A DNA stretch of 64,000 nucleotides from Alphaproteobacteria bacterium (lineage in GTDB: Bacteria; Pseudomonadota; Alphaproteobacteria; UBA8366; G965603855): positions 4,379,781 through 4,443,780 of the forward strand of contig OZ272519.1 in NCBI GenBank assembly GCA_965603855.1, read 5' to 3'. The position numbers and the translations under genes were made by a program. Every line of letters begins with the position of its first letter. Position 1 is the first letter of the stretch. Below, piece by piece: positions 37,745 to 39,362 of the stretch. The notes under the pieces were generated by a model, which was not told the DNA's origin, searched no databases, and worked only from the letters and a program-made list of their open reading frames with translations.

Positions 37745-37877
37745 GGCATGTCTCCTTTGGTCCCAGTGCAAACGCGTCCTGGTCGATCTGGCGACATACC
37801 GAATTCCTGGTCGGCCGACAGGCGATCACGGAGCGCACCGTATCAGCGCCGGCCCGCCCTGGCAACGCAACCGCGGG

Positions 37878-37910
37878 CAAACGAAAAGAGCCGCCCTTTT
37901 GGGGCGGCTC
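37878..37910 (-). terminator. Rho-independent terminator
   Basis: GAGCCGCCCC-aaa-AGGGCGGCTC followed by TTTTCGTTT on the minus strand. Confidence 0.85.
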
Positions 37911-37961
37911 TCCACGAAGTGGGCAAAGCCCTCTTCCGTGATCTCTTCAGATCGCGGGTTC

Positions 37962-38039
37962 TTACACCGTCCGCAGAGGCTGCTCCATGGCCGGCGAAAA
38001 ACACCCGGTTGAGGGCGTTGCACGCAAATCGCTAGACAT
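37962..38039 (-). CDS. Unannotated 25-aa small ORF (MSSDLRATPSTGCFSPAMEQPLRTV)
   Basis: Preceded by AGAAAGGAGGTGATCCA, with GGAGG 7 nt from ATG; own promoter-like element and terminator. Confidence 0.6.
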   Translation of the reverse strand: MSSDLRATPSTGCFSPAMEQPLRTV

Positions 38040-38118
38040 TGGATCACCTCCTTTCTGTTGTTAAAGCCAGAGTGGGCGCGGACGGGGCATGGAACCCACG
38101 CCGTCTGCCCAGGGTGCA

Positions 38119-38145
38119 GATTGGACGATTCTCCGCGTCTGTCAA
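38119..38145 (-). promoter_or_regulatory. Putative sigma70 promoter for the sORF transcript
   Basis: Exact TTGACA (38145-38140) with CAATCT 16 nt downstream. Confidence 0.5.
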
Positions 38146-39362
38146 TGGGGGGCCGGGACCGGGTCTTTCAAAAAGCCGTCAGAAAACCTGACGTCGGCGG
38201 CGCCCGCGAAGGCCGCCAGCCGGCCAAGCTCGTCCTCCAGGCCGGCCCGGCGCCGGGCGGTGAGCGAAAGACCGGGCTCCAGCCAAAGGCCCGTCACCCC
38301 AAGCGCGCCGTCCTCGCGGGACCGTTTCATGTCGATCCGGCCGACGAAGCGGTCCTTTTCAATGAGCGGAAAGACGTAATAGCCGAACTGGCGCCGCGGC
38401 TCCGGCACGAACACCTCGATCCGGTAGCGGAAGCCGAACAGACGCTCGGTCCGGCCGCGGTCGCGGATCAGGGGATCGAACGGGCTCAAGACCCGGATCC
38501 CGCCGGGCACCGGCGGCAGGGCGGCGACGCGCGCCTCCAGGTCCGGCGCCGCATAGACCGGCTGCGGCCTTGCCCCGTCCGCCGTTTCCACCTCGGCCCT
38601 GACAACGTCGCGGCCGAGCCGGCTTTCGCACCATGCGGACGCCTCGGCCGCCGACAGCTTGCCCCAGAAGTCGGCGAGCGCGCCCGGCGTGGCGAAACCC
38701 AGCCGGTCGAGCGCGGCGCGACAGGCCCAGTCCACCAGCGCCGGGTCCGTGGGCGGCGGACCCCGGTGTTCGGCCGGGATCACCCGTTCGGTCAGGTCGT
38801 AGACCTTCTGGAAGCCCTCGCGCCGGCAGACGGCGAGCGCACCGGTCCGCCACAGGAACTCCAGCGCCGTCTTCGACGGGTGCCAGTCCCACCAGCCCTG
38901 GGCGTTCTTCTTCTTTCCGTCGCCCAGCTCGCGCGCCATCACCGGTCCGTTGCGGCGCACATGCGCCAGCAGGTCGTCCAAGCCGGCCTCGAAGCCCCCG
39001 CGGCGCCAGGCGCGCCAGCGCTTGAGCAGCGCCTCGCGATGGCGGGCGAACCGGGCCTGCCAGTAGGGATAGAACCGGGTCGGAATGACGGCGGCGTCGT
39101 GGGTCCAGTTCTCGAACAGGCTGCGTTCGCGCTCCAACAGGTGGGCGAGCTGTTCGCGCCGGTAGGTCTGGTTGCGCGCGAACAGGATCATGTGGTGCGC
39201 GCGCTCGACCGTGTTGATGCTGTCCACCTGGACATAGCCGAGCCCTTCGATCAACGCCTGCAGCCCGGCGCGCGTGAGCCGCCGGCGGCGCGGCGCCGCC
39301 AGGCCCTGAGACGCGATCAACAGGCGGCGCGCGTCGCGGTTGGAAATCCACAGGCGGGTCAT
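38142..39362 (-). CDS. YcaQ/AlkZ-like winged-helix DNA glycosylase
   Basis: VQVDSINTVERAH, LFENWTHDA, LSPFDPL, YRIEVFVPEPRRQFGYYV. Confidence 0.92.
   Translation of the reverse strand: MTRLWISNRDARRLLIASQGLAAPRRRRLTRAGLQALIEGLGYVQVDSINTVERAHHMILFARNQTYRREQLAHLLERERSLFENWTHDAAVIPTRFYPYWQARFARHREALLKRWRAWRRGGFEAGLDDLLAHVRRNGPVMARELGDGKKKNAQGWWDWHPSKTALEFLWRTGALAVCRREGFQKVYDLTERVIPAEHRGPPPTDPALVDWACRAALDRLGFATPGALADFWGKLSAAEASAWCESRLGRDVVRAEVETADGARPQPVYAAPDLEARVAALPPVPGGIRVLSPFDPLIRDRGRTERLFGFRYRIEVFVPEPRRQFGYYVFPLIEKDRFVGRIDMKRSREDGALGVTGLWLEPGLSLTARRRAGLEDELGRLAAFAGAADVRFSDGFLKDPVPAPH

Follow-up and report, generated by a model that had tools for sequence, protein, structure and literature searches.

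What is the role of a small RNA in which a perfect complement to the 3' end of 16S rRNA runs directly into the start codon of a 25-codon reading frame? Such a locus lies on the minus strand of an alphaproteobacterial genome (assembly GCA_965603855.1), in a stretch of 64,000 nucleotides from contig OZ272519.1 that we call the window. An earlier note on this DNA had suggested that the RNA traps 30S subunits or slows their escape from initiation, and that it may be a ribosome sponge or hibernation-type regulator, or an extremely highly translated microprotein gene. The locus thus raises the question of which of its parts matter: the pairing with the ribosome, the peptide or the structure of the RNA.

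The 17-nt complement to the 16S rRNA tail

Direct reading of the minus strand at 38056 to 38040 gave AGAAAGGAGGTGATCCA, or AGAAAGGAGGUGAUCCA in the RNA, an extended Shine-Dalgarno (SD) sequence that is perfectly complementary to the 3' tail of 16S rRNA over 17 nt and ends directly before an AUG. The 16S tails of both rrn operons of the same genome were also read directly and are complementary to this 17-mer, confirming what the earlier note had seen. These two operons have identical 16S 3' regions and carry two tRNAs in the 16S-23S spacer. The 16-mer AGAAAGGAGGTGATCC is present three times in the 4.98-Mb genome. Two of the copies belong to the two 16S genes, whose 3' ends they form, and outside the rrn operons the sole such site genome-wide is 38056-38040 on the minus strand.

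We then determined the contiguous complementarity to the 16S tail at all 9,638 GGAGG cores of the whole genome. This census found seven runs of 12 nt, one of 13 nt and one of 14 nt, and a run of 17 nt at this locus only. The second-longest run (GGAGGTGATCCAGC, 14 nt, C1:2742714, minus strand) and the third-longest (GGAGGTGATCCAG, 13 nt, C1:3059347, minus strand) are both without the GAAA 5' part. The duplex between the extended SD and the 16S tail was predicted at -31.3 kcal/mol, compared with -9.2 kcal/mol for the canonical AGGAGG.

Architecture of the unit

The other parts of the unit were read on the same strand. A candidate -35 box (TTGACA, 38140 to 38145) contains the TGA stop of the upstream neighbour, an AlkZ-like DNA glycosylase gene, and is followed by two candidate -10 boxes (AATCTG at 38122-38117 or CAATCT at 38123-38118), all by sequence reading. 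The -35 box is perfect and the -10 box is poor, and a consensus scan called no promoter at the locus. Transcription probably starts near 38110, where a 5' leader hairpin begins (GGGCAGACGG...CCGUCCGCGCCC, 38074 to 38110) with a folding energy of -19.7 kcal/mol by itself. The CA-rich AACAAC (38057 to 38062), which is predicted to be unpaired and has the family consensus CAACAA, adjoins the SD (38040 to 38056) on its 5' side. The 25-codon ORF, MSSDLRATPSTGCFSPAMEQPLRTV, occupies 37962 to 38039, with its ATG at 38039 to 38037 and its TAA at 37964 to 37962.

Two hairpins lie within this frame. Codons 7-14 form AACGCCC-UCAACC-GGGUGUU (38000 to 38019) in both MFE and ensemble folds, and relatives have a hairpin at the same position with a different sequence. 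The second, GGAG-CAGC-CUCU (CCAUGGAG-CAGC-CUCUGCGG, 37971 to 37990), was identified by covariation as described below; its 5' arm is at 37990-37983, its CAGC loop at 37982-37979 and its 3' arm at 37978-37971. In folds of the 3' domain we found two further hairpins, GCGAUCU-GAAG-AGAUCAC (37955-37938) and GGGC-UUU-GCCC (37931-37921), and the relatives likewise have two. The pre-terminator strand ACUUCGUG (37913 to 37920), which in the family is the 3' half of a long-range helix, leads into a Rho-independent terminator, GGAGAGCCGCCC-CAAAA-GGGCGGCUCUUUU (37885 to 37913), with 10-12 bp and a U-tract, which aligns with the terminator of the Rfam family RF01867.

Taking the probable start, the unit runs from 38110 to 37885 and measures 226 nt, close to the ~230 nt estimated before. 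Each element that the earlier note had listed (TTGACA, the leader hairpin, the 25-codon ORF, the two downstream hairpins and the strong terminator) was recovered on the minus strand, and its structural reading, a stand-alone structured transcript with a giant SD and a micro-ORF, appears right. A 73-codon GTG ORF without a Pfam hit (37826-38047, minus strand) overlaps the unit in another frame and is most likely a high-GC artefact.

Relation to CC2171 and the rre small mRNAs

When the window was scanned with Rfam at gathering thresholds, a tRNA alone was found. In an E-value scan, 37888-38063 on the minus strand was aligned to RF01867 with 46.1 bits (E 1.8e-8). The Rfam check that the earlier note had called for had two sides: the score falls below the gathering score of the family (75 bits), yet the alignment covers the model from end to end (positions 1-159). 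On sequence grounds, the locus is an RF01867 homologue outside the curated boundary of the family. The RF01867 consensus starts with cAAcaAucGAAAGGAGGUGAUCCAGUGUCU and includes GAAAGGAGGUGAUCCAGUGUCU; it carries the anti-16S stretch, which makes the giant SD a property of a known family. The model matches 23 of 41 genomes of the same order, with nine above the cut-off. CC2171 is reportedly a Caulobacter sRNA described by Landt et al. in 2008. It has been validated by Northern blot in Methylorubrum extorquens, where its role was stated as unknown (bioRxiv 10.1101/2022.01.24.477521). RF01867/CC2171 and our locus both carry the 5' module CAACAAnnGAAAGGAGGUGAUCCARUGUCU, have internal hairpins and a reading frame of ~24 codons, and end in the terminator. 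CC2171-type members encode the peptide MSHCH..R.WIVA and form a strong helix, CAUUGUC:GACAAUG, whereas our locus has only a degenerate form of this helix and carries the hairpin with the CARC loop as its middle domain.

The rre small mRNAs are a second published match. The rreB mRNA of Bradyrhizobium is 165 nt long and combines an anti-16S region of 17 nt with an ORF of 14 codons that starts with GUG (Hahn et al., RNA Biol 2017;14:1353, PMC5711450). It appears in the P100 fraction and binds strongly to 30S subunits, with which it sediments; its translation is weak, being suppressed by the extended SD and the GUG start; removal of the start codon stabilises the RNA, and Northern blots reveal a 60-nt ORF-derived fragment (PMC5711450). 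Overexpression left growth unchanged, and the RNA is far scarcer than ribosomes (PMC5711450). The 30S binding, the weak translation and the start-codon-dependent decay are measurements on B. japonicum rreB only (GUG, 14 codons). Analogues with 16-17 nt of complementarity, some of them with ATG starts, were listed across Alphaproteobacteria, in Caulobacterales, Rhizobiales, Rhodobacterales (rreR, 18 codons) and Rhodospirillales, and their contexts are not conserved (PMC5711450). Synthetic RreB and RreR were unstructured, overproduction was without phenotype, and the function of the rre RNAs was called elusive (PMC5711450). We found no literature after 2017 on this function.

By the rre criterion of at least 16 nt of perfect complementarity ending at or in the start codon, the locus falls within the group, having 17 nt and its AUG at 38039. 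Like the rre RNAs, it has a perfect complement to the 16S 3' end (16-17 nt in the group) that extends up to the start codon, with a short ORF, a structured body, an intrinsic terminator, a single copy per genome and a context that is not conserved between families, and it is probably a stand-alone small transcript as they are. It differs in that the ORF has 25 codons rather than 14 (rreB) or 18 (rreR), and its peptide is unrelated to the rre peptides. The start is AUG and the complementarity ends one base earlier, whereas that of rreB includes the G of GUG; the AUG may permit more translation than rreB's GUG. The unit measures ~226 nt compared with 165 nt in rreB, the difference being an extra 37-nt 5' leader hairpin, and its GGAG-CARC-CUCY hairpin lies within the ORF rather than 10-11 nt past the stop as in 18-codon rreR-like members. 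These comparisons indicate that the locus is a divergent member of the published class of rre small mRNAs and CC2171 and is not novel as an element. The earlier note had itself named a match to an already characterised family as grounds for refutation, and RF01867 and the rre class are that match.

Distribution and genomic context

We scanned 401 sampled genomes of the class with the pattern GAAAGGAGGTGATCNNRTG, which excludes 16S. Homologues outside rrn operons, which the earlier note had proposed to look for, were found in 65 of these genomes, almost always in one copy, and the reversed control gave 0. A scan of named genomes yielded at least 120 matches, 80 by name among the matches listed. 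The named carriers include Mesorhizobium, Chelativorans, Aminobacter, Hyphomonas, Henriciella, Hyphomicrobium and Aestuariivirga, as well as Pelagibacterium, Ahrensia, Geminicoccaceae, Pontivivens and a few Woeseiaceae MAGs. From these searches, 165 unique elements were collected as the comparative set. Our own genome is the sole representative of its family among the genomes searched. At three loci, the same 15-nt anti-16S module precedes small proteins of 49-57 codons with a signal-peptide-like N-terminus and a common motif, A(F/M)AE(C/G)(G/N), for example MSIGIKTLAVASVLLFGSAVSGAAFAECGG; the giant SD is thus not confined to mini-ORFs of ~25 codons.

Downstream of the unit are an FKBP-type isomerase gene (37744-37316) and a tRNA. 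An FKBP or AlkZ-like neighbour was found at none of the 50 homologous loci examined, and neighbour genes were common only to close relatives. The unit appears autonomous and not the leader of a particular gene.

Promoter, leader hairpin and transcription

In relatives, a promoter of the form CTTGnn-N17-CATATT lies ~45 nt upstream of GAAAGG. These boxes are absent from this locus at the relatives' position, and nothing but TTGACA, 90 nt upstream, resembles a promoter box. The 37-nt leader hairpin occupies the space of the relatives' promoter, and it is missing in the relatives read through because their promoter sits there. Judged from the letters of these loci, it is the one feature of the locus that is lineage-specific, unlike the relatives read through. 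We considered that the hairpin might be a repeat element and rejected this, as it has a single copy genome-wide. A terminator-like hairpin with a U-run (CGTCAGGTTTTCTGACG GCTTTTTGAA, 38177-38193, minus strand) was also seen within the last ~50 nt of the AlkZ-like CDS, a short way before the unit's candidate promoter.

Two marine metatranscriptomes contained short contigs from near-identical relatives that cover the unit alone. One (X23, 193 nt) spans 37903-38095 with six mismatches and four gaps, and the other (X20) spans 37950-38052 with one mismatch. A 318-nt RNA-seq contig also matched the element of a Mesorhizobium-type homologue. The contigs of these relatives attest presence in RNA and carry neither transcript ends nor levels. 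The organism's own sequencing runs are DNA, and its expression is inferred from the relatives and the environmental contigs. One run, X4, gave short contigs over 37759-38045 that are broken at GATC sites and go on with unrelated letters, a pattern resembling that of a proximity-ligation (Hi-C-type) library rather than of RNA.

Selection on the reading frame

Next, we compared the 5' module in 49 elements that had been found without an ORF constraint. CAACAA at -8 to -3 is 63-94% conserved, the second codon is UCU in ~90%, and the start codon is GTG in 26 and ATG in 23. The anti-16S complementarity ranges from 14 to 18 nt, with a mode of 17, and the invariant part of the family is a 15-nt anti-16S stretch plus the start codon. 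In the full set of 165 elements, the start codon sets a frame of 18-29 codons in 96% and of no fewer than 18 in any, whereas the off frames end within this range in only 10% and 6%. The start frame is thus open and tightly limited in length against scattered off frames, which indicates that its openness and the position of its stop are both selected.

The peptide behaves differently from the frame that encodes it. The 25-aa peptide has no Pfam match, and the residues that recur across clades are only MS(S) and those encoded by the hairpin. Within clades the peptide is conserved, as in Mesorhizobium (MSSDFVFQNVASADCTFGKQSSR), and two of the three substitutions between an environmental relative and the ORF in the window are synonymous. 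We determined variability by codon position in codons 5-18 of two gap-free groups, and found no third-position excess (1.54/1.58/1.61 at positions 1/2/3 in 23 members; 1.55/1.48/1.00 in 13). A conserved-peptide reading was dropped, as there is no Pfam hit and no codon periodicity and the 'EQPL' motif proved to be RNA. As far as alignments can tell, the peptide is hypervariable and selection is on the length of the ORF, not on the peptide. The comparison of peptide with structure that the earlier note had suggested thus sets a hypervariable peptide against a covarying hairpin in the 165-element set.

A covarying hairpin that ignores the frame

The motif in question is an 11-mer, G[GA][AG]GCA[AG]CC[UC][CU], found at +56 to +66 from the AUG in 77 of the 165 elements. 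Of these elements, 53 have it in frame 0 (E/K/G-Q-P), 12 in frame 1 (G-A-A) and another 12 in frame 2 (S-S/N-L). Five rreR-like members with 18 codons carry it beyond the stop, at a distance of 10-11 nt. We performed a covariation test that was anchored on GCARCC only and scored eight stem levels around the CARC loop. Stem cells were paired in 86.3%, compared with 70.3% in shuffles, and 0 of 500 shuffles reached this level; with partners slid along the sequence, 42-59% were paired. Compensatory changes were found in seven of the eight pairs of the stem (for example GGAG:CUCU, GAAG:CUUC and GGGG:CCCC), and seven of the eight levels are paired at this locus. The difference in two environmental RNA contigs is a G-to-A variant of the loop (CAAC). 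The 'EQPL' peptide motif is a frame-independent, covarying RNA hairpin.

We defined an MSS/CARC subgroup by AUG UCN AGY together with an 8-bp GGAG-CARC-CUCY hairpin ~49-68 nt past the A of the AUG. The locus fits this subgroup, with AUG UCU AGC and the hairpin at 37990-37971. MSS-type elements were also present in bins labelled as non-alphaproteobacterial, namely two Woeseiaceae, Gammaproteobacteria, 'Klebsiella' and 'Bacillaceae' MAGs. In both Woeseiaceae copies the architecture is complete, down to the CARC hairpin. The elements in Gammaproteobacteria, 'Klebsiella' and 'Bacillaceae' bins could reflect either binning contamination or genuine spread.

Long-range pairing and access to the SD

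An intrinsic terminator is present in 140 of the 165 elements, and the median unit is ~190 nt. In 140 elements we compared native with swapped partners for a long-range helix between codons 2-6 and the pre-terminator strand. The native helices were more stable (-8.26 versus -6.01 kcal/mol, p = 4e-18), and 87% of the elements did better with their own partner. At this locus the helix, which in RF01867 joins codons 3-5 to the pre-terminator strand, is degenerate (GCGA:UCGU plus UG:CA) and does not surpass swapped partners, at -5.6 kcal/mol versus -5.9 kcal/mol when swapped.

In the predicted ensemble of the 226-nt RNA, the SD core GGAGGU pairs with GCCUCU of the 3' arm of the CARC hairpin (unpaired probability at most 0.18) and UCCA pairs with UGGA, and AGAAA is mostly free (0.55-0.95). 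The internal pairing of the SD with CCUCU was predicted at -14.9 kcal/mol. Across 140 elements, accessibility was 0.37 for the SD core and 0.63 for the start codon, versus 0.29 and 0.45 in composition-matched mononucleotide shuffles. Both are more accessible than in the shuffles, so masking is not selected family-wide. That an anti-SD mimic masks the SD as a rule of the family was dropped on the same result. The local covarying hairpin, whose 3' arm it primarily is, accounts better for the CCUCU stretch, and the closed form predicted at this locus may be real for this locus alone. In modelling, two alternative partners are available to CCGUCCGC of the leader, namely the leader's own 5' arm GCAGACGG and a near-duplicate, GCGGACGG, 3' of the hairpin. 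The CCGUCCGC:GCGGACGG pairing extends the closed form, and the two predicted states are ~4.5 kcal/mol apart. If the leader toggled between folding on itself and clamping the closed form, a further input could be added.

Discussion

The 18-29-codon frame upheld in 96% of the 165 elements, the conservation of the peptide within clades such as Mesorhizobium and the two synonymous substitutions of three in the environmental relative would suit a genuine microprotein gene that acts through its 25-aa peptide and has the giant SD only to set the level of expression; RreB and RreR were also treated as conserved small proteins by Hahn et al. (PMC5711450). We nevertheless regard such a gene as unlikely. 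Between clades just MS(S) and the hairpin-encoded residues recur, 'EQPL' is read as SSL or GAA(F/S) in 24 of 77 elements because the RNA hairpin falls in another frame, and there is neither a third-position excess in variability nor a Pfam hit. RreB and RreR are themselves unstructured and silent on overproduction (PMC5711450). A trans-acting regulatory RNA, with the CCUCU/GGAG hairpin or another loop pairing with mRNAs or titrating a protein and with the anti-16S stretch and the ORF as secondary features, seems improbable. CU-rich anti-SD motifs are used by many alphaproteobacterial sRNAs, and the Rfam annotation as an sRNA, the covarying hairpin and the structured 3' domain agree with this idea. 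However, the family invariant is the 15-nt anti-16S stretch with the start codon and not a loop, the length of the ORF is under selection, and we know of no targets. In addition, rreB was found on 30S subunits (PMC5711450).

The position of the RNA, on the same strand as the FKBP-type isomerase gene (37744-37316) and ~140 nt upstream of it, and its attenuator-like layout of leader peptide and terminator could suggest a cis-acting leader or attenuator of this gene. It resembles the trpL/rnTrpL attenuators of Sinorhizobium, in which a translated short ORF remodels the downstream RNA, a terminator comes next and the released RNA may have a life of its own. Unlike such attenuators, the locus has no conserved downstream operon and no regulatory codons, and its giant SD is not an attenuator feature. 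The FKBP gene has its own SD, its presence beside the element is not shared by any of the 50 homologous loci, with synteny only among close relatives, and contexts are not conserved according to Hahn et al. (PMC5711450). The missing synteny largely refutes an attenuator of the FKBP gene, which we consider very improbable. An origin by chance or from a piece of an rrn operon, finally, would account for the 17 nt of the plus strand that are identical to the 16S 3' end. The identity ends exactly at 17 nt, the flanks are unrelated to 16S or ITS, fewer than 0.001 copies of a given 17-mer are expected by chance in 5 Mb, and the identical architecture is kept in 165 elements. The 17-nt boundary, the unrelated flanks and the conserved architecture rule such an origin out, and we give it practically no weight.

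With high confidence, we conclude that the whole is best explained as an rre-type small mRNA, a relative of CC2171 and of rreB and rreR, that would dock on 30S subunits and use its ORF as a track. We propose that it is made as a monocistronic unit of ~226 nt from its own candidate promoter to its own terminator. By analogy with rreB, the CA-rich single strand and the 17 nt would dock the RNA on 30S subunits via the whole free 16S tail, far more tightly than any normal mRNA. The duplex would reach the base before the AUG and leave no spacer, so that initiation would need partial melting and would be slow; initiation and escape would both be inefficient, and the RNA would mostly sit on the 30S subunit. 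The 25-codon frame would then be a track rather than a message. A translating ribosome would melt the GGAG-CARC-CUCY hairpin and stop within a few codons of it, which would remodel the RNA and probably trigger its decay. The start-codon-dependent instability of rreB and its 60-nt ORF-derived fragment fit such coupling of translation to decay. By the same analogy, we infer that the locus would behave like rreB and that translation would act as a switch.

The rreB experiments also bear on what the earlier note had suggested, as far as the analogy holds (PMC5711450). Trapping of 30S subunits or slow escape agrees with them. Bulk sequestration of ribosomes by a sponge is unlikely and appears disfavoured, as overexpression of rreB was harmless and the RNA is far below the number of ribosomes. 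An extremely highly translated microprotein appears disfavoured as well, given that translation of rreB is weak.

We also put forward, tentatively and with less than even confidence, that the rre/CC2171 RNAs are devices that report on or act on free 30S subunits, with the ORF kept so that a ribosome melts the hairpin and stops. The complement of the 16S tail and the GGAG-CARC-CUCY hairpin would then be the invariant parts, the hairpin being an intramolecular copy of the SD:anti-SD helix, kept at its distance from the AUG while the frame drifts. If this were true, each RNA would be a single-use, ribosome-triggered switch and not a microprotein gene.

As far as the literature we reached shows, four points are new: the frame-independent covarying GGAG-CARC-CUCY hairpin, the quantitative evidence that the length of the ORF but not its peptide is under selection, the result that masking of the SD is not selected, and the lineage-specific leader hairpin. 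For annotation, such loci should be labelled as rre/CC2171-like ncRNA or small mRNA, and neither as a hypothetical gene nor as an rRNA fragment. Among the unexplained RNAs of Alphaproteobacteria, the rre/CC2171 class is one of the most conserved; about one-sixth of the sampled genomes carry it, with one copy each, and it has the strongest possible pairing between an mRNA and the ribosome. To this class, our locus is a divergent addition from a marine-sediment lineage. Selection targets the anti-16S stretch, the length of the ORF and an RNA hairpin that ignores the frame, and not the peptide, a pattern that directs attention to the mechanics between RNA and ribosome and away from a microprotein.
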